Shown one piece after another: positions 4,549 to 33,393 of a DNA stretch of 64,000 bases. The DNA lies in the IMG/VR virus record IMGVR_UViG_3300035182_001709; one strand, 5' to 3'. Numbering within the stretch: the stretch's first letter is position 1; each line of letters starts with the position of its first letter. This DNA is from a virus (taxonomy: Duplodnaviria; Heunggongvirae; Uroviricota; Caudoviricetes). Position numbers and translations under genes: made by a program. Below the pieces are notes generated by a model. That model was not told where the DNA came from and did no database searches. It saw nothing but the letters and a program-made list of their open reading frames with translations.

Positions 4549-4959
4549 TCATGGGAGTTGCAGGGTGCAACGAACCTTTTGCGCAAGGCTCGGGAGCTCG
4601 TCAGCCAACTCTTCATAGACAGGCCACGTTCGCTGGACCATCCGGTGACAGGTGTAGTATGACATGCGCCCCAAGGTCTCGATGGTCTCACGGTGTTCAG
4701 CGATGGCACCTGGCATGATTGTCGCGGTCCAGAGGACCCAGTCGCCGATTCGTTGAAAGTGCTCGAAGTTCCCGTGATCACGGGCATTGGCAAAGGCCAC
4801 CACGATCGAGCGATCGCTCAGATCACCATCTGCACGCTTAAAGCTGCTCAACACGCTGACCACATAGGCCCTGGCATCAGGACTGCAGTTGACCGCCTCG
4901 AGGCGCTCAGCGAACCAGTCATCGAGCCTGACCACGATCTGCACCGTCCCCATCAACAA
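4549..4959 (-). CDS. hypothetical protein (136 aa)
   Basis: ORF. Confidence 0.5.
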   Translation of the reverse strand: MLMGTVQIVVRLDDWFAERLEAVNCSPDARAYVVSVLSSFKRADGDLSDRSIVVAFANARDHGNFEHFQRIGDWVLWTATIMPGAIAEHRETIETLGRMSYYTCHRMVQRTWPVYEELADELPSLAQKVRCTLQLP

Positions 4960-9388: not shown

Positions 9389-9985
9389 TCACTGGCAATC
9401 GGCGGGCTTCCACGCGCGGATCGCGGTGACTGCGTCAGCCTGTGAAATCGCACCCGACTTCAGGCCCGTGTAGACTTTGTCCTCCACCACATCCTTCTTG
9501 TTGGCATCCGAGAGTGGCTGGGGCCACAGGTTGGTGACGTCGTTGGCGCCGCCGGCGGCCAACGGGATGTAATGGTCGAACTCGTACTTCGAGTAGTCGG
9601 CCTCTGCGATGCCGTAGGCCTTGGCGACGGTGTCCTTCATCTTCTTGGTGATGTGGCGCTGACAGTAGGCGATCTTGCCCGGGTAGCGCAGCTCCTTAAA
9701 GTCAGGATCGTCCTTAGTGCACAGCTTGCCCGGCGTCAACGCAGGATCGGGCAACCGCCGCTTCCCATCTGAGGTAAGACACGGCGTTGCCACTGAGACC
9801 TCGACCGATGAGTCGACCCCTGCGTCCACAGAGGCCTCGACGTCTGCACCGGCGCCAGAAGCGGAAGTAGATGCAGACGCGGAAGAAGTCACTCCAGTCT
9901 CGTAATCGCTGGACGGCAGTGTCGATGACTGGCACGCAACGAACGAGAACACGACTGCAACGGTGAGAATCGATTTCTTTAGCAT
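9389..9985 (-). CDS. lipoprotein with C-terminal HNH (His-Me finger) nuclease domain
   Basis: Signal peptide plus lipobox 'VVFSFVAC'; HNH motif 'EFDHYIPLAAGGANDVTNLWPQP'. Confidence 0.55.
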   Translation of the reverse strand: MLKKSILTVAVVFSFVACQSSTLPSSDYETGVTSSASASTSASGAGADVEASVDAGVDSSVEVSVATPCLTSDGKRRLPDPALTPGKLCTKDDPDFKELRYPGKIAYCQRHITKKMKDTVAKAYGIAEADYSKYEFDHYIPLAAGGANDVTNLWPQPLSDANKKDVVEDKVYTGLKSGAISQADAVTAIRAWKPADCQ

Positions 9986-10249
9986 GCGCCCATCATACTA
10001 CGGAGACGGGCTGGTGTTCACTGGCTGGTCGACTGTCTTTTGTGAACAATATTCTTGCCGCAAAAGTCTTAGTTTGAGAGTGACAATTCTGAACGTACGT
10101 GTGATGTCGTGAATCCACAAGCACACTTGATAGAACAGAATCTACCCGATCCATACGACCCATCATGGGGATTCTGACACTTTTCACACAAACTCATGTT
10201 TTACGTGTTCGAACTTAGTTCGAAACACAACTCAGTTCAAGCGGTTTGG

Positions 10250-10321
10250 ATCAGGGAGTGGGATTCGAACCCACATTTTTTCCGTTCAAAGCGGAAGGTC
10301 CTGCCGTTAGACGACCCCTGA
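10250..10321 (-). tRNA. tRNA-Gln (anticodon UUG)
   Basis: T-loop GGTTCGAATCC on minus strand; cloverleaf folded by eye; anticodon loop CUUUGAA. Confidence 0.7.
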
Positions 10322-10413
10322 ATGATTCATGCTGCCTTGTCCTGCCTGGTATAGACGATCGATCAACGTGGCTGTAACCTACGTTCCAATTGTCCCGAAT
10401 ATTCTCGGGATGG

Positions 10414-10485
10414 CTGGGAGAGGTGGATTCGAACCACCGTGAGCAGAGTCAAAGTCTGCCATCCTTGCCGCTGAATGATCTCCCA
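10414..10485 (-). tRNA. tRNA-Gln (UUG), second copy
   Basis: cloverleaf; anticodon loop CUUUGAC. Confidence 0.65.
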
Positions 10486-10498
10486 ATGTTTACATTTA

Positions 10499-10574
10499 TG
10501 GCTGCCCGCCCAGGATTCGAACCTGGATTTTCTACGTTCAGAGCGTAGGGTCCTCCCATTTAGACGACCGGACA
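10499..10574 (-). tRNA. tRNA-Gln (CUG), CCA encoded
   Basis: anticodon loop CUCUGAA; one mismatch in acceptor stem. Confidence 0.6.
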
Positions 10575-10681
10575 ATAAGCGTCACCGTGGTCTGGATCGA
10601 ACAGACGTTGCGATAGCAGCCGCATTCGCTTTCGCGTGGTAAGATTCTGTGAACCTCACAACTTTCCTCAAACACGGTGAC

Positions 10682-10758
10682 TGGCAGGGGTGCTCGGATT
10701 CGAACCGAGACGAGCCGTTTTGGAGGCGGCCATGCTAGCCGTTGAACATCACACCCCT
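10682..10758 (-). tRNA. tRNA-Trp (CCA) probable; CCA encoded
   Basis: loop CUCCAAA with C31-A39 mismatch (alternative is a 9-nt loop). Confidence 0.5.
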
Positions 10759-10779
10759 GTGAACTGAGAAGACGTATCT

Positions 10780-10854
10780 TGGCACCGGCGAGGGGGATTC
10801 GAACCCCGTTTCCGGGTAGACAGCGCGGCGTCCTAGCCACTGAACGACGCCGGC
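10780..10854 (-). tRNA. tRNA, anticodon GUC read (Asp?), atypical loop CUGUCUA (U37)
   Basis: cloverleaf with 4/5 anticodon stem; CCA encoded. Confidence 0.45.
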
Positions 10855-10871
10855 ATGATGAATGAAGAACT

Positions 10872-10945
10872 TGGCGGAGACGACGGGATTCGAACCCGCG
10901 TACATTCCCTAGACAGGGGAGTGGCCTCCAGTGGCCCACGCCTCC
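10872..10945 (-). tRNA. tRNA, anticodon GUC read (Asp?), same atypical loop CUGUCUA
   Basis: cloverleaf; short D-loop. Confidence 0.45.
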
Positions 10946-11178
10946 AAGAAAACCCGATCACGCTGAGCTTCGCGTCGGGGTCATTAGTTCGTTCTCGCAT
11001 TCACCTTCCGAGTGTTTAGCCCGGCTCAGGCGGTTACATGCGCACCCCATCACAGCGTACCCGACGTGACAAATTCATTCAGCCTTCGTGAAATGATCAT
11101 CAATGCGGTGGTACACCACCGGTCAGATGTCCTGTTCAACCCGTGCCTATTCGAGCTTACCACGCTGTGAAGCGTCGG

Positions 11179-11251
11179 TGGAGCTGATGGGATTCGAACC
11201 CACGACCTCCTGCGTGCAAGGCAGGCGCTCTCCCAGTTGAGCTACAGCCCC
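11179..11251 (-). tRNA. tRNA-Ala (UGC)
   Basis: GGGGCUGUAGCUCA... G3-U70; loop CUUGCAC. Confidence 0.8.
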
Positions 11252-11389
11252 AAATGTTCTCGGGTGTCTTTGAAGATACTTCACCAATGATTAGATCGAG
11301 GGCCTTTTTATCGATCTACACCCAAGATTCGGCTTTCACCTGCAAAAGGCGCCCTCTGCCCAAACGGTTACTGGCTACGGTGGAGCTGA

Positions 11390-11462
11390 AGGGATTCGAA
11401 CCCTCTACCTCCTCGTTGCGAACGAGGCGCTCTCCCAACTGAGCTACAGCCCCATGAAATAG
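11390..11462 (-). tRNA. tRNA-Ala (CGC)
   Basis: G3-U70; loop UUCGCAA. Confidence 0.75.
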
Positions 11463-11533
11463 GATTTTTACGATGAACTTTGACCTGAGAGGCGTTTGTC
11501 CGGTGGCCGGGTCTGATCATCACTATTCCATCT

Positions 11534-11609
11534 TGGTGGAGCACAAGGGATTCGAACCCATCACCTCTTGCATGCCGTGCAAGCGCTCTTCCAACTGAGC
11601 TAGTGCCCC
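11534..11609 (-). tRNA. tRNA-Ala (GGC), CCA encoded
   Basis: GGGGCAC... loop ACGGCAU (C33). Confidence 0.65.
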
Positions 11610-11802
11610 GCGTGCCAACAGTTACTTTGCCCGCCTCATATATGATTTCAGAGGAACATTTCATTTCACCTATTGACTTGTCCGGATCTGCGTGCATTTT
11701 CTCTGTCTAATCCTGACAGGACTTTGTCGCAGCATCCTCAGTAGTTCGGTCGCTATTGGCTTAGCGGCCTAGCAACAGGATAATCCCCGTGAGGGGGAAG
11801 TT

Positions 11803-12561
11803 TCACTTCTTGCGTCTCTCCGTGATCGTGTTGATCTTACCGCCACCACGAACGTTCGACATGCCAAGATCAATCAGGACCAGCGTCCCATCGTCACGGG
11901 TCATCATATTGCCCGCATGGTAGTCGTGAAAGTCGATGCCGAGTTCCGTCAGCGTGTTGAACATGTCGCGGAGACCGTACTTGGTGACCAGCGCATTCCA
12001 CTTGCTGTTGATGTCCTTGACGAACTCTTGAGCCTCTGGCGAGTTCAGGTTGCCGCCGTACTTCTTCTTGACTTGAGAGACGATAAACTCCTTCGTCAAC
12101 TTCTTGGCATTGTCCCAAGAGCCCTCGGCTCGCTTGATCCAGATTGGTAGACCCGTGGCAACAAGAGCGTTATTGAAGGCCTTGGCCTCGTCCTTCGGAA
12201 GCGGTTGCAACTTTTCCTGCAGGATTCCGAAAAATCCCGTGTCGCCAAAGCGCCACACCGCGTAGAAGTGAACGACGTTCTTGATGTCCTTACCTACCAG
12301 CGCCGAGGCTGCCTCAGCCTCCTTGTCGTCATTGGTCACCTTCAGGACCTTGCCCCCGCCGATGTCCAAGGCGGTTCCACGCGTTCCCGTTCCGAGAACA
12401 GGCAGTGAATCGATCTTGTTGACGTTGAGACCCAACTTGGCCATGCCCTTTGGGAACTTCTTCAACAGTTCCTTGGACTTATCAGCATCGATCGCCTCAC
12501 CTTCGCGGATGAGGATCTCGAGCAGCGTCCTAAGCCTACCTACCGTGATGACGATTGCCAT
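11803..12561 (-). CDS. protein kinase-like protein (Gly-rich loop LGTGTRGTALDIGGGKVLKV, catalytic HDYHAGNMM, DLG) carrying the N-terminal leader motif (MAIVITVGRLRTLLEILIRE)
   Basis: 252-aa ORF; kinase subdomain motifs by eye. Confidence 0.6.
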   Translation of the reverse strand: MAIVITVGRLRTLLEILIREGEAIDADKSKELLKKFPKGMAKLGLNVNKIDSLPVLGTGTRGTALDIGGGKVLKVTNDDKEAEAASALVGKDIKNVVHFYAVWRFGDTGFFGILQEKLQPLPKDEAKAFNNALVATGLPIWIKRAEGSWDNAKKLTKEFIVSQVKKKYGGNLNSPEAQEFVKDINSKWNALVTKYGLRDMFNTLTELGIDFHDYHAGNMMTRDDGTLVLIDLGMSNVRGGGKINTITERRKK

Positions 12562-12664
12562 GCAATAGGTTATTCGTTTTGGTGTGCCTGGAGGGATTTA
12601 AGCCGAACGTCTCTGGATTATGGGCCCCAGCGGGAACCGTCCCTCCTCCGGGTCAATCTAATAC

Positions 12665-12739
12665 TGGTAGCGGGAGACGGAATCGAACCGCCGACCTCTA
12701 GGTTATGAGCCTAGCAAGCTACCGCTGCTCTATCCCGCT
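12665..12739 (-). tRNA. tRNA-Met (CAU) elongator-type (or Ile2)
   Basis: anticodon arm CUAGG-CUCAUAA-CCUAG; A1-U72 paired; CCA encoded. Confidence 0.7.
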
Positions 12740-12753
12740 ATGATCTATCTAGG

Positions 12754-12825
12754 TGGGTCCGGAGGTAATCGAAACCCCACGCGCCAGTTTAAAAGACTGG
12801 TCTCTTCCACTTGAGTTACGGACCC
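12754..12825 (-). tRNA. tRNA-Lys (UUU)
   Basis: loop CUUUUAA. Confidence 0.75.
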
Positions 12826-12842
12826 AATATCACACCTTTCAC

Positions 12843-12912
12843 CTGCTACCCCCGGATTCGAACCGAGGTCTTGCAGGTTCAAAGCCTGCTGTGCTACCAT
12901 CACACTCGCATT
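12843..12912 (-). pseudogene. tRNA-like fragment or pseudo-tRNA (T-arm plus Gln-like anticodon arm, no D-arm or acceptor pairing found)
   Basis: GGTTCGAATCC T-loop and hairpin GCAGG-CUUUGAA-CCUGC, but no complementary 5' acceptor strand. Confidence 0.3.
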
Positions 12913-12928
12913 TGGTTACTTGCTGTGA

Positions 12929-13004
12929 CTGGTGCGCGAGGGTGGAGTTGAACCACCGACCCCCAAGGATAATCCTTGGTGCTCTTCTGCCTGAGCTACT
13001 CGCA
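12929..13004 (-). tRNA. tRNA with canonical 76-nt cloverleaf whose anticodon loop GAUUAUC places UUA at positions 34-36 (suppressor-like or undetermined; A33, U37)
   Basis: perfect arms, CCA encoded; loop lacks U33. Confidence 0.5.
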
Positions 13005-13005
13005 C

Positions 13006-13081
13006 ATGGTGGGGAGGGCAGGACTTGAACCTACGACCCCCGGCTTATTCTGCCGGCGCTCTTTCACTGAGCTACCTCCCC
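13006..13081 (-). tRNA. tRNA with anticodon loop AGAAUAA (AAU at 34-36; Ile-like or undetermined), CCA encoded
   Basis: perfect cloverleaf; G33; 1-nt spacer to next tRNA. Confidence 0.45.
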
Positions 13082-13128
13082 GTGACCGTCACTGTACCCT
13101 GTCCGCTAGAACGTGTACACTGACTTAG

Positions 13129-13203
13129 TGCGTCTGGTGGGATTCGAACCCACGACCTTCTAGGTAAGAACTAGTTGCTCTGGTTCCACTGAGCTACAAG
13201 CGC
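13129..13203 (-). tRNA. tRNA-Lys (CUU)
   Basis: loop UUCUUAC; one acceptor mismatch. Confidence 0.55.
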
Positions 13204-13264
13204 ATGAATGATCGAACCTCACCTTCGACTTCATGTGTCGTGTTGAGTGGTTACTATTCGATCG

Positions 13265-13340
13265 GTCGGTCCGGCGGGATTCGAACCCGCACCTGTCTCC
13301 TTAAGAGGGAGCTATGCAATACCAGTAACACCTCGGACCG
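13265..13340 (-). tRNA. tRNA-Lys (CUU) probable second copy; atypical (A8, 10-nt D-loop)
   Basis: loop CUCUUAA. Confidence 0.45.
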
Positions 13341-13453
13341 AGGTTGCGACGGAAGTTCTGCTGAGAGTTTGGCCGTCGCTCCGTGGGCTCTCATGTCTGC
13401 GCCATCGCAAGGCTACCGCTCCCACGATTACGGAGTCTGCGGTTTGTCTTGCT

Positions 13454-13540
13454 GACGGCTGGCTCACAGGGCAGGATTCGAACCCGCGTTAGGCTTTCAC
13501 CGTTACGGGTTAACAGCCCGCTGCCTGGCCACTAGGCTAC
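13454..13540 (-). tRNA. tRNA with long variable arm (type II-like), anticodon loop CUGUUAA (GUU); CCA encoded
   Basis: 87 nt; canonical T-arm and acceptor. Confidence 0.45.
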
Positions 13541-13564
13541 CTGTGAATGATGATCCCAAAGGAT

Positions 13565-13653
13565 CTGGCTGCGTCGGAAGGAGTCGAACCCTCATCCCCT
13601 CGATTAACAGTCGAGTGCACTGCCTCTCCGGCTTTACGGTTGTGCTACGACGC
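13565..13653 (-). tRNA. tRNA-like, anticodon arm CUCGA-CUGUUAA-UCGAG (GUU) with oversized D region; CCA encoded
   Basis: 89 nt; good acceptor and T arms. Confidence 0.4.
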
Positions 13654-13654
13654 A

Positions 13655-13728
13655 ATGGCTCCGGCACAAGGATTCGAACCTCGATGATCTAGTAAACAGC
13701 TAGACGTCCTCCCGTTGAACGATACCGG
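13655..13728 (-). tRNA. tRNA, anticodon GUU read (Asn?), loop CUGUUUA; CCA encoded
   Basis: canonical cloverleaf; 1-nt spacer from previous tRNA. Confidence 0.55.
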
Positions 13729-13731
13729 AAT

Positions 13732-13806
13732 GTGGCCCCCGAGGACGGATTCGATACCGTCATATCCGACCTAAGGCGGCCGGCGCTCGAGCTTGAGCTA
13801 CTCAGG
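13732..13806 (-). tRNA. tRNA-like with irregular anticodon arm (6-bp stem, 6-nt loop GCCUUA) and 8-nt T-loop; possible pseudo-tRNA
   Basis: acceptor and D arms fine; CCA encoded. Confidence 0.35.
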
Positions 13807-13855
13807 GATTTGGAACGTAGATTGTCAGAGAACAAGGAAAGGCATGCACCTTGCC

Positions 13856-13945
13856 TGGTGTAGCGGGTGGGATTCGAACCCACAATGTTCACCACATTGG
13901 GACCCGGGTTACAGCCGGGCGAGCACACCGTTGCTCAACCGCTAC
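13856..13945 (-). tRNA. tRNA-Tyr (GUA), long variable arm, CCA encoded
   Basis: arm CCCGG-CUGUAAC-CCGGG; variable-arm hairpin CAAUG/CAUUG. Confidence 0.7.
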
Positions 13946-13971
13946 ATACAGTCGATCATCGAGATGATCGG

Positions 13972-14053
13972 TGGAGTGCCTAGGAGTCGAACCTAGTTGT
14001 GCACAGCAAACTGATTTACAGTCAGCCCCCGAGCCCTACGGGACTAGCACTCC
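13972..14053 (-). tRNA. tRNA-Tyr (GUA), second copy
   Basis: loop CUGUAAA; long variable arm. Confidence 0.6.
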
Positions 14054-14272
14054 ATTTGGAGGACCCACTGCTGTCGACCACCGGTTCAGTTTCGATTTTG
14101 GCTTCTTCCTGCCATCATCTCAGCTGCCCCGGAAGCGGACGGGGCAGCGAGGCCCCCATCACACTTGCGTATTGGCATACGCGGTGGCATTATCTTGCCA
14201 CTGCTTCTGCTGATACTGCTTGTTGACGTTCGTTTTCATGACAGTTTCTTCTTCGTACGACCCTTACGGGCT

Positions 14273-14349
14273 TGGTCGACCGGGGGAGAGTCGAACTCCC
14301 GACAACACGTGTATCAGACGTGTGCTCTAACCGACTGAGCTACCGGTCG
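14273..14349 (-). tRNA. tRNA-Ile (GAU), CCA encoded
   Basis: arm CACGU-CUGAUAC-ACGUG. Confidence 0.75.
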
Positions 14350-14375: not shown

Positions 14376-14873
14376 TCAGGTTTCAGTTTCTTGTACACAC
14401 TCTTTTTTAGTTTCGAGTACTTTTTGTCTTCCATGACGTTTGCGGTTCTTCCAACCGAAGGTTGGTGTTTGAGAATGACAGTTAGGACACAAGAACCTTA
14501 GGTTGGTTCGTTCTTGATTCCTGTTGTCGCCGTCAATGTGATCAACCTGCAATGTCAATGACCTGCCGTTGTGAACAGGCGGTTGGCCGCAACACTCACA
14601 TCGATAATCACGGCCAATTTCTAGAAGGAGATCTCGTAGATTTCCAGGTTTCTCACGATCCTTCACCAGGATTTCATCGATTGATTTTGATCGCCGGCCT
14701 CGGTTCCAGGCATGGCGTGTTCCGTCCTTGTAACCACGATTTGGATCGCCACCTTCATGAACTTGCCAGATGTGGGCTCGCAGGCCCATTAACTTGAAAG
14801 TACGTGGACAGTGTGGGCAAGGATAAGTTAGAGCACTCGATTGCTTCATCCACTCTAATGATAACAGTTTCAC
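14376..14873 (-). CDS. HNH endonuclease with N-terminal C2H2-like zinc finger
   Basis: 'LQVDHIDGDNRNQERTNLRFLCPNCHSQ'; sits immediately next to the tRNA array. Confidence 0.6.
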   Translation of the reverse strand: MKLLSLEWMKQSSALTYPCPHCPRTFKLMGLRAHIWQVHEGGDPNRGYKDGTRHAWNRGRRSKSIDEILVKDREKPGNLRDLLLEIGRDYRCECCGQPPVHNGRSLTLQVDHIDGDNRNQERTNLRFLCPNCHSQTPTFGWKNRKRHGRQKVLETKKECVQETET

Positions 14874-17158: not shown

Positions 17159-17557
17159 TCAGGCTGGCTCGCGCCACCGTGAATGACGTTTTTCTAGCAG
17201 CGCGGCAATGACCTCTTGAGCGCGCTCGTCCAAGTTCTTGGCATCGTGGTGGATGCCCTTCGTGTTGTTGCAACGCTCGCACGCCAGCGCCAAATTGTGC
17301 AAGTCGGTTCCACTGCCGCCCGCTGTCAGCGGCATAATGTGCTCAATGGTGGCCTCAGTGCGTCCTGACATCGTCACGGTCAACATGGTGCCGCAGTGGA
17401 TGCACTTTCCCACGTGAATCGACGGGTCAGTGTAGCCCACATAGAAGCTGTTGTCGGTCCGGACGATGTCGAGCACCAATTGTTCCCTTGAAGAACCTTT
17501 CGGCCTCGGGTCAGTGGCTTCTGCCTTCGACTTTTTGCCTTTTTTCTTGAGGCCCAT
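17159..17557 (-). CDS. HNH endonuclease
   Basis: 'TIEHIMPLTAGGSGTDLHNLALACERCNNTKG'. Confidence 0.6.
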   Translation of the reverse strand: MGLKKKGKKSKAEATDPRPKGSSREQLVLDIVRTDNSFYVGYTDPSIHVGKCIHCGTMLTVTMSGRTEATIEHIMPLTAGGSGTDLHNLALACERCNNTKGIHHDAKNLDERAQEVIAALLEKRHSRWREPA

Positions 17558-33168: not shown

Positions 33169-33393
33169 ATGGAAACCATCCAGTGCCGGACCTGCGGCGG
33201 CGTCGCCCATCCCGCGACCGGGTGCGCCTACACCGCGACCTTCATCGTCTGCGGGCCGTGCACCCGCGAGTTCTGGGCCTGGCTGCGCTCGCGGGTCAAC
33301 AGCCGCCCGAGTCGGCGCCACGGTGGCCCGAGCTTTTACGATCACGTCAACCGCGTCGCTCCCCCTGTGCAAATCCACCACGAAACGGAGTAA
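33169..33393 (+). CDS. small Cys-rich zinc-binding protein (CRTCGG...CGPC)
   Basis: ORF; plus-strand cassette 33140..33168. Confidence 0.55.
   Translation: METIQCRTCGGVAHPATGCAYTATFIVCGPCTREFWAWLRSRVNSRPSRRHGGPSFYDHVNRVAPPVQIHHETE

Follow-up and report, generated by a model that had tools for sequence, protein, structure and literature searches.

We describe here a dense array of transfer RNA (tRNA) genes in the IMG/VR virus record IMGVR_UViG_3300035182_001709, which was analysed as a 64-kb stretch (the window, whose numbering is used throughout) of a phage genome of at least 309 kb. With default settings ARAGORN finds 21 tRNA genes in the whole window, all on the minus strand between positions 10247 and 14349, and none outside this interval; a relaxed threshold adds genes at 13733-13807 and 13566-13654, giving 23 tRNA-type genes in 4.1 kb. 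Eighteen genes reach the gathering score of the Rfam tRNA model, which was also run in a second, more sensitive search by E-value. Sixteen genes encode a CCA end (14 from the default set of 21 and both of the added ones), one-base spacers occur at 13006 and 13655, and several genes are present per anticodon; an initial annotation of the region, which had estimated about 23 densely packed genes with redundant isoacceptors and many encoded CCA ends, is borne out in each of these points. About 17 of the genes look able to decode, serving nine amino acids (Ile, Tyr, Asn, Lys, Met, Ala, Asp, Trp and Gln), and three tRNA-shaped genes, at 13007-13081, 12930-13005 and 13733-13807, are probably non-decoding. 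Given its clustered genes and the HNH endonuclease gene next to it, the array is a phage tRNA gene array with an adjoining homing endonuclease, and as such a further member of the known phage tRNA arrays.

Related loci were retrieved through the 252-residue product of an open reading frame (ORF) at 11803-12561 that lies inside the array. At least five relatives (L001, a 340-kb contig, together with L002, L031, L281 and L283) carry arrays in the gene order of the window: tRNA-Ile(GAU), tRNA-Tyr, an odd gene, tRNA-Asn, tRNA-Lys(CUU), two to four odd genes, tRNA-Lys(UUU) and tRNA-Met, followed by the kinase-like ORF, three tRNA-Ala genes, tRNA-Asp, tRNA-Trp and tRNA-Gln. Of the four complete arrays (the window array, L001, L002 and L031), three or all four contain each of the 13 canonical anticodons, which argues that the island has been inherited and maintained and is not a recent accident. 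The region is thus a tRNA gene island of a huge phage, passed on as a unit within its lineage.

The decoding genes, all on the minus strand and called by ARAGORN unless stated otherwise, are given here in array order with their Rfam scores. The first gene is tRNA-Ile(GAU) at 14273-14349 (67.8 bits), with the canonical loop CUGAUAC and an encoded CCA, and the same gene comes first in L001, L002, L031, L281 and L283. Two tRNA-Tyr(GUA) genes have long variable arms: the one at 13970-14053 falls under the tRNA gathering score and gives a weak match to tRNA-Sec (34.7 bits), and the one at 13856-13945 (53.4 bits) has an encoded CCA. Three genes carry the Asn anticodon GUU. The first, at 13656-13729, has the loop CUGUUUA; the second, at 13566-13654, is a tRNA-Asn-like gene read from the sequence, with a canonical loop CUGUUAA, an encoded CCA and a D-loop of 21 nucleotides as against 8 in its L002 counterpart (4700-4773), and it gives a partial Rfam match (25.4 bits) and is detected but mis-folded by ARAGORN at the relaxed threshold; the third, at 13460-13546 (57.8 bits), has a 17-nucleotide variable arm, unusual for tRNA-Asn. 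Lysine is served by two CUU genes, 13264-13340 (46.6 bits) and 13128-13203 (60.3 bits), and by a UUU gene at 12752-12825 (52.6 bits). The tRNA-Met(CAU) at 12665-12739 (67 bits), when aligned with its relatives, shares an A1-U72 pair with L001 and L031, and in its anticodon stem only two of the three basal G-C pairs are present; its body (D-arm and loop) resembles that of a bacterial initiator such as Escherichia coli tRNAfMet. Beyond the kinase-like gene lie tRNA-Ala(GGC) at 11534-11609, with a G3-U70 pair and the loop ACGGCAU, tRNA-Ala(CGC) at 11379-11453 (68.7 bits) and tRNA-Ala(UGC) at 11177-11251 (72.1 bits). They are followed by two tRNA-Asp(GUC) genes with the loop CUGUCUA, at 10872-10945 and, with weaker stems and a score under the gathering threshold (25.4 bits), at 10780-10854; by tRNA-Trp(CCA) at 10682-10758, with a low score of 31.8 bits; and by tRNA-Gln(CUG) at 10499-10574 (44 bits) and two tRNA-Gln(UUG) genes at 10411-10485 (54.1 bits) and 10247-10321 (56.9 bits), the last of the array. 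For most of these amino acids there are two or three diverged genes.

Decay is also seen within the island. The gene at 12843-12910 is a degraded tRNA-Gln(UUG): its anticodon loop is canonical, its D-arm is truncated, it has no CCA, five of seven acceptor pairs remain, and the Rfam match spans model positions 9-63 only. This is the tRNA fragment of the initial annotation. Additional to the 23 genes, 12570-12660 is the decayed relic of a second Met-like tRNA, passed over by both ARAGORN and Rfam. It can be aligned to L031 3855-3924, the second of that array's Met genes, and its loop CCCAUAA is still recognisable. Most tRNA 5' ends in the array are preceded by T, with (A)TCAT closing many of the leaders; such a T at position -1 suits the preference of bacterial RNase P. 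The 219-nucleotide spacer after tRNA-Ile (14054-14272, minus strand) contains a strong G+C-rich hairpin and a 26-codon ORF, and folds as a whole with an energy of -82.7 kcal/mol.

Several of the decoding genes deviate from near-universal tRNA rules at positions beside the anticodon. Both tRNA-Asp genes have U37-A38 in a loop of the form YUGUCUA (Y, pyrimidine), as do those of L001, L002 and L031, and CUGUCUA was found in 8 of 29 tRNA-Asp(GUC) genes from unrelated viral contigs (L071, L096, L147, L154, L156 and L174). Judging from these sequences, U37 tRNA-Asp is a recurrent phage trait that is not confined to the clade of the window and, within the literature searched, an apparently undescribed variant. 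The U37 loop CUGUUUA of tRNA-Asn is common to 13656-13729 and to L001 3803-3874 despite compensatory changes in the anticodon stem. The C33 of tRNA-Ala(GGC), an odd loop that had been missed in the initial annotation, is also present in L002 (6990-7064), with U33 in L001 and L031, and five different tRNAs of the clade have C33. The anticodon stem of tRNA-Trp has at its base a C31-A39 mismatch, which recurs in L001, L002 and L031. U37, C33 and C31-A39 are thus conserved in the clade, as read against general tRNA rules; their conservation suggests that the oddities of the decoders' anticodon arms are selected, and they lie next to the anticodon, not inside it.

The three tRNA-shaped genes keep four stems and the CCA end, and have non-canonical loops that differ between relatives. 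The first, 13007-13081 (56.6 bits), has the loop AGAAUAA, in which 'AAU' would occupy the anticodon position, with G33 and A37, so that the U33 rule is broken and the purine-37 rule kept; its D-loop is AGUGAAA, with no GG. In the second, 12930-13005 (43.8 bits, match at 12933-13005 in the E-value search), the loop GAUUAUC reads G32 A33 U34 U35 A36 U37 C38 and has neither U33 nor a purine at 37 nor a pyrimidine at 32; G32 and C38 could pair, leaving a loop of five nucleotides. Its D-loop is AGGCAGAA, with GG at the 5' end of the loop and not at positions 18-19. Both genes end in A73-CCA, and their stems are paired in 7/7, 4/4, 5/5 and 5/5 positions. The Rfam covariance model and ARAGORN place both in an identical cloverleaf register, and the odd loops are therefore not a folding artefact. 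The perfect cloverleaves of these two genes, and the loops GAUUAUC, AGAAUAA, CUGUCUA and CUGUUUA, had all been noted by eye, at coordinates one base off; the programs do not assign canonical loops to the two genes, which upholds the odd loops and argues against decoding. The third gene, 13733-13807, found with relaxed ARAGORN, has a 7-bp acceptor stem, G73 and an encoded CCA, an anticodon loop of 6 (or 8) nucleotides and an 8-nucleotide T-loop, much as first described. Lacking GG in the D-loop and UUC in the T-loop, it is a look-alike of a different type; its counterparts occupy the same slot after tRNA-Tyr in L001 (3727-3798), L002 (4602-4671) and L031 (2269-2340), with a different loop in each.

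A search of viral contigs with the D-arm pattern TAGCTCAGNGAAAGAGC, taken from the odd genes, returned matches in at least 119 contigs, many of them longer than 200 kb. Among the matches listed, to which the family counts below also refer, there are 83 distinct tRNA-like sequences. The body common to 12930-13005, 13007-13081 and the odd genes of the relatives consists of a perfect 7-bp acceptor stem with an encoded NCCA, a D-arm UA-GCUC-AG(N)GAAA-GAGC without G18G19 (the family D-loop pattern being AGNGAAA), a 5-bp anticodon stem that is paired but differs in sequence between members, a variable loop AGGUC and a T-arm GGUGG-UUCAAGU-CCAUC. Non-canonical anticodon loops were found in 54 of 84 family members (64%) as against 86 of 689 other tRNAs of the same loci (12%), an odds ratio of 12.6 (Fisher p = 5e-24). 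The loops of these 84 members have 7 nucleotides in 58 cases, 6 in 18 and 8 in 8, and some are simple helix caps such as C-GCAA-G and G-UUCG-C; U33 is present in 57% of the family, compared with 93% of the other tRNAs. A34 is common, and neither A34 nor triplets complementary to stop codons are avoided. Seven of 49 seven-base loops carry such a triplet, with 3.8 expected from loop composition (p = 0.08), which we read as a sign that there is no selection against them.

The anticodon arm varies within a well-conserved body. When 150 hits are aligned to the model, 98.7% of the stem cells pair, and the covariation score is 0.82; shuffled alignments give 0.17, and sliding the partners gives 0.15 at most. 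The RNA fold of the family is clearly under selection. U56 is present in 16 of 71 members and in none of 513 tRNAs with GG in the D-loop; its confinement to GG-less members points to a preserved 19-56 elbow pair in which G19 became A. Across unrelated contigs the family bodies are 82-91% identical, compared with mostly 69-90% for ordinary tRNAs. A scan of bacterial genomes with the D-arm gave 100 hits in 596 Gb, a number near chance, of which 22 were tRNA-like, many of these in tRNA arrays, and no ancestral host tRNA type for the family emerged from it. Rfam has only the general tRNA model for these sequences and no separate family, and no description was found in the literature searched, within the library that it covered. 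The family is widespread and virus-enriched, and apparently undescribed.

The initial annotation had read 12930-13005 as ochre-suppressor-like because its loop places UUA at positions 34-36. In the window, however, TAA is a stop. A rough gene set (n = 109) ends in 79 TGA, 21 TAG and 9 TAA codons, the conserved sigma-factor gene being among those ending in TAA, and in-frame TAA codons are not in excess in window genes. Two candidates with coding signal on both sides were both explained: the first is an antisense-frame artefact, and read-through at 33391 was rejected since the downstream ORF has its own ATG, hence two genes. With TAA read as sense, coding density goes from 0.856 up to 0.872, less of an increase than either of the other two stops gives. 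Nor is the triplet conserved: the twelve nearest homologues of the gene (82-86% identity outside the anticodon arm) have twelve different loops, and L031 3495-3566, with an identical acceptor stem, has the arm CCGGC-UUGGGU-GCCGG. Two genes with similar acceptor stems are called 'UUA' (L031 3292-3366, with a poor stem) and 'UCA' (L281 4241-4312). An exact search of viral contigs with the acceptor and D-arm returned only ordinary tRNA-Met genes of unrelated phages and no orthologues, showing that the body resembles a Met-type tRNA; the 24 exact matches to the anticodon arm lie on unrelated short contigs, look like chance 17-mers and were set aside. Given the rule-breaking loop, the use of TAA as a stop, the unconserved triplet and the lack of a significant excess of stop-complementary triplets in the family, a role as a stop reader is not supported. 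We leave a small probability for weak suppression, and the best explanation of the 'UUA' triplet is as a by-product of a freely varying A/U-rich loop.

In our view the island is best explained, with a probability of roughly 0.6, by conflict with host nucleases directed at the anticodon arm, which would have shaped a set of replacement tRNAs; the tRNA-shaped RNAs that accompany them are probably non-decoding. A phage that supplies its own tRNAs would continue translation when host tRNAs are depleted or cleaved. Host nucleases would act on the anticodon arm, and the arm would diversify in response: the decoders, with the anticodon kept and neighbouring positions between 31 and 39 changed, could be hardened replacement tRNAs, and several diverged genes per anticodon could be a hedge against different nucleases or hosts. 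The look-alikes would have given up decoding, or nearly so, and could be competitors or decoys that escape cleavage, or else substrates of factors that read only the L-shape and the CCA end.

A number of points weigh against this explanation. Nuclease evasion and a decoy role for the array RNAs are proposed by analogy; the set of nine amino acids was counted in the 64-kb window, from a genome at least 309 kb long, and may be incomplete; a scan of the array for promoters and terminators gave no signal above chance; and the uniformity of the family D-arm is partly built in by a search pattern derived from the odd genes. The loops of the family also keep some decoder-like features. A purine at 37 is found in 86% of its seven-base loops and a pyrimidine at 32 in 68%, and stop-complementary triplets lean high (14%, compared with 16 of 575, or 2.8%, in other tRNAs). 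There are sub-groups with anticodon-like loops and a purine at 33, namely N-R-R-A-U-A-A, CAUUUAR and CGUNGAG (R, purine; N, any base), the first of which includes 13007-13081 (AGAAUAA), L281 (UAGAUAA), L283 (CAAAUAA) and L092 (UGAAUAA). Some family members, perhaps 13007-13081, may therefore still decode, and 13007-13081 itself may keep some Ile-like decoding or recognition role; constraint of this kind is absent from the loop of 12930-13005.

A stronger version of the nuclease explanation, which we put forward only tentatively, is that 12930-13005 and 13007-13081 belong to an undescribed, virus-enriched class of tRNA-shaped RNAs deployed as nuclease sponges or competitors. The conserved body, the CCA end and the re-wired elbow (A19 for G19, with U56) would be retained while the anticodon arm is swapped or capped; the targets would be host immune nucleases, or further factors that bind the body of a tRNA and act against its anticodon arm; and the U37 tRNA-Asp would be a second, independent anti-nuclease adaptation present across many phages.

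The supply of codons is the long-standing textbook explanation of phage tRNAs, and here it would mean that the array tops up tRNAs for codons that the phage uses more than its host does, and that the odd loops are products of neutral drift or pseudogenes. Codon usage was taken from 59 window ORFs of at least 100 codons that show a coding G+C pattern, and the preference is for G/C-ending codons (AAG 89%, CAG 77%, AAC 79%, GAC 67%, TAC 76%, ATC 80%). The array has readers for these (two Lys CUU genes, Gln CUG, Ala CGC and GGC, and GUN anticodons for NAC codons) as well as U34 readers, and its repertoire matches the phage's own preferred codons, contrary to the skew towards A/U-ending codons first reported. 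The decoders would thus fit a codon-supply role, and true decay products exist at 12843-12910 and 12570-12660. Yet Leu (8.6%), Val (7.9%), Glu (6.9%), Arg (6.8%) and Gly (6.7%) have no tRNA in the window and are as frequent in the same ORFs as the amino acids covered. Drift leaves unexplained the conserved U37 of tRNA-Asp and tRNA-Asn and, among the matches listed, more than 80 distinct look-alikes with perfect, covarying stems, whose bodies are more conserved than those of ordinary tRNAs; the array's true pseudogene, with its broken acceptor and D stems, shows what drift does. We regard codon supply alone as unlikely.

It is equally improbable, in our view, that the look-alikes, 13007-13081 included, function in decoding by means of loops that are nuclease-proof (position 33 being a purine or C) and are charged by tolerant synthetases, with 12930-13005 as a weak ochre or general stop suppressor. 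The bases at 32 and 37, the conserved triplets (RAU in four homologues of 13007-13081 and UUU in the CAUUUAR group), the 'UUA' and 'UCA' genes with acceptor stems like that of 12930-13005 and the raised frequency of stop-complementary triplets all speak for such a role. Set against them are the loop of 12930-13005, which has none of the three expected bases and may close to five nucleotides, and the D-loops without G18G19; about one third of the family has 6- or 8-nucleotide loops or tetraloop caps, and A34 is common, among the matches listed. Moreover, the stop-triplet excess is not significant when set against loop composition, and the sigma-factor gene ends in the very codon that a suppressor would read.

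Least likely is an action of the look-alikes at the level of DNA or processing, as RNase P/RNase Z punctuation for the neighbouring tRNAs and the kinase mRNA, or as target or immunity sites of homing endonucleases whose cleavage would drive turnover of the anticodon-arm sequence: HNH and GIY-YIG genes are the commonest neighbours of the family (13, 10 and 10 of at least 119 loci), an HNH gene abuts the window array, T4 SegB is described as cleaving within tRNA genes (cited in PMC8421152), and one-base spacers with a leader T suit precise RNase P processing, but an encoded CCA, a conserved T-arm and A19-U56 covariation would be superfluous for punctuation, and the true tRNAs are already ample as processing sites.

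The genes around the island are consistent with its origin in a phage of unusual size. The G+C content of the window is about 58%, and the genes recognised in it through Pfam and PHROGs include those for a sigma factor, an ATP-dependent DNA ligase and a GroEL-type chaperonin, besides several for HNH endonucleases. Its largest ORF (859 residues) matches, with 40-42% identity, only LR756500, LR756501 and LR756503, which are huge phages, likewise uncultured, with genomes of 462-735 kb, and a protein identical to the kinase-like product of 11803-12561 is encoded on a contig of 309,481 bp; together these identify the source as an uncultured huge phage with a genome of at least 309 kb. Identical DNA is present in two other samples. 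Searches with GroEL and the ligase (tblastn) found no close cultured relative, and megablast and blastn against GenBank phages found no related array, only single 75-nucleotide tRNA-Ala matches.

Directly upstream of the array lies an HNH endonuclease gene (14376-14873, minus strand; Pfam HNH at 9e-5, PHROG 10822 at 3.8e-27), whose HNH motif matches a homing-type HNH cluster adjoining tRNA arrays in 10 viral loci, and which fits the usual homing-endonuclease companion of such arrays; a second HNH endonuclease is encoded at 17159-17557 (Pfam and PHROGs). The flanking HNH genes of the initial annotation are in this way confirmed. What it called a secreted nuclease on the other side is the 198-residue product of 9389-9985 (minus strand), downstream of the array, a predicted lipoprotein. 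It carries a signal peptide (…FVAC), a stretch of low complexity made up of Ser, Ala and Val and, at the C-terminus, the HNH-nuclease-like motif DHYIPLAAGG…N (DHxxP...N), and it has no hit in Pfam or PHROGs.

The gene at 11803-12561 (minus strand; 252 residues), between tRNA-Met and tRNA-Ala, gives a weak Pfam hit to ABC1 and has the kinase motifs GTGTRGT, VLKV, HDYHAGN and IDLG. Its AlphaFold2 model (mean predicted local distance difference test score, pLDDT, 91) matches protein kinases in Foldseek at E-values of about 1e-5 and template modelling (TM) scores of about 0.35, and it is predicted to be a minimal protein-kinase-like gene of generic fold. A tRNA-modifying role of the Bud32 type was rejected, as sequence and structure show only this generic minimal fold. 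None of its 62 homologues is named; five related arrays have one at the equivalent position, and in other relatives the gene lies away from any tRNA, so that a link between it and the array is not established. Within a few kb of look-alike family members (viral loci L060-L178, among the matches listed), genes for a PTH2-like peptidyl-tRNA hydrolase were seen at 11 + 8 loci, and Ro60/TROVE-type and vWA-domain proteins each in 8 of the at least 119 loci; none of the three types is encoded in the 64-kb window. A Ro60/Y-RNA relationship was rejected, the window having no Ro60-type gene and the RNAs no Ro60-binding helix.

Phage tRNA arrays have recently been reinterpreted as a counter-defence against tRNA-cutting host enzymes, on the basis of a few tRNAs of cultured phages. 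The present locus and the related ones enlarge this basis in three ways: in one natural series the anticodon is constant while the near-universal positions beside it (U33, purine 37) vary, in a large group of tRNA-shaped RNAs strong selection acts on the body and not on the anticodon arm, and a U37 tRNA-Asp recurs across many phages. Should the look-alikes be decoys or nuclease-proof adaptors, they would constitute a new class of RNA-based anti-defence element and also a source of orthogonal tRNA scaffolds. Their recognition matters for annotation as well: the automatic label 'tRNA-Stop(UUA)' on one look-alike could falsely suggest an alternative genetic code.

In its general organisation the array resembles the tRNA clusters of large phages (T4, T5, cluster C and M mycobacteriophages, metagenomic huge phages) and the L-arrays of bacteria, which likewise have at least 20 genes on one strand, short spacers, several genes per anticodon, occasional pseudogenes and an adjoining homing endonuclease (PMC8421152). 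It differs from these clusters in being unmatched in cultured or GenBank phages, in embedding a protein-kinase-like gene, and in that about one eighth of its genes are look-alikes with a non-canonical loop. With the suppressor tRNAs of crAss-like and Lak phages, which accompany reassignment of TAG or TGA, 12930-13005 shares a phage-encoded, stop-complementary loop triplet, but its loop is non-canonical, the triplet is unconserved and there is no in-frame TAA in the window; reassignment of TAA is not known in phages. The pseudo-tRNAs and tRNA mimics (tRNA-Other of Bacillus cereus, the tRNA-like domain of the bacterial Y RNA YrlA, the T4 stable RNAs C and D) are also tRNA-like in fold, with altered D- and T-loop contacts and no evident decoding role; YrlA gives a weak match (18.8 bits) across the junction of 12930-13005 and 13007-13081. 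Unlike these, the look-alikes are of normal size, have CCA at the acceptor end, lie inside tRNA arrays and lack the Ro60-binding helix.

A close parallel to the explanation that we prefer, a replacement set shaped by anticodon-arm nucleases, is provided by phage tRNAs that escape cleavage. Mutations in the anticodon loops of phage tRNAs have been proposed as an escape from VapC, PrrC and colicins (PMC10264068, van den Berg et al. 2023); AriB of the PARIS system cuts between positions 40 and 41, and the tRNALys of T5 escapes it by a base-pair swap in the anticodon stem (PMC11464382); and a retron effector (Eco7 PtuAB) is countered by the tRNATyr of T5 (PMC11555353). As in these cases, several window tRNAs keep the anticodon and have an unusual anticodon arm, and the isotypes of the array (Lys, Tyr, Asn, Asp, Gln, Ala, Trp and Met) overlap the reported nuclease targets (PMC10264068, PMC11464382, PMC11555353). 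The changes in the window differ in falling at the near-universal U33 and purine 37, beyond ordinary loop variation.

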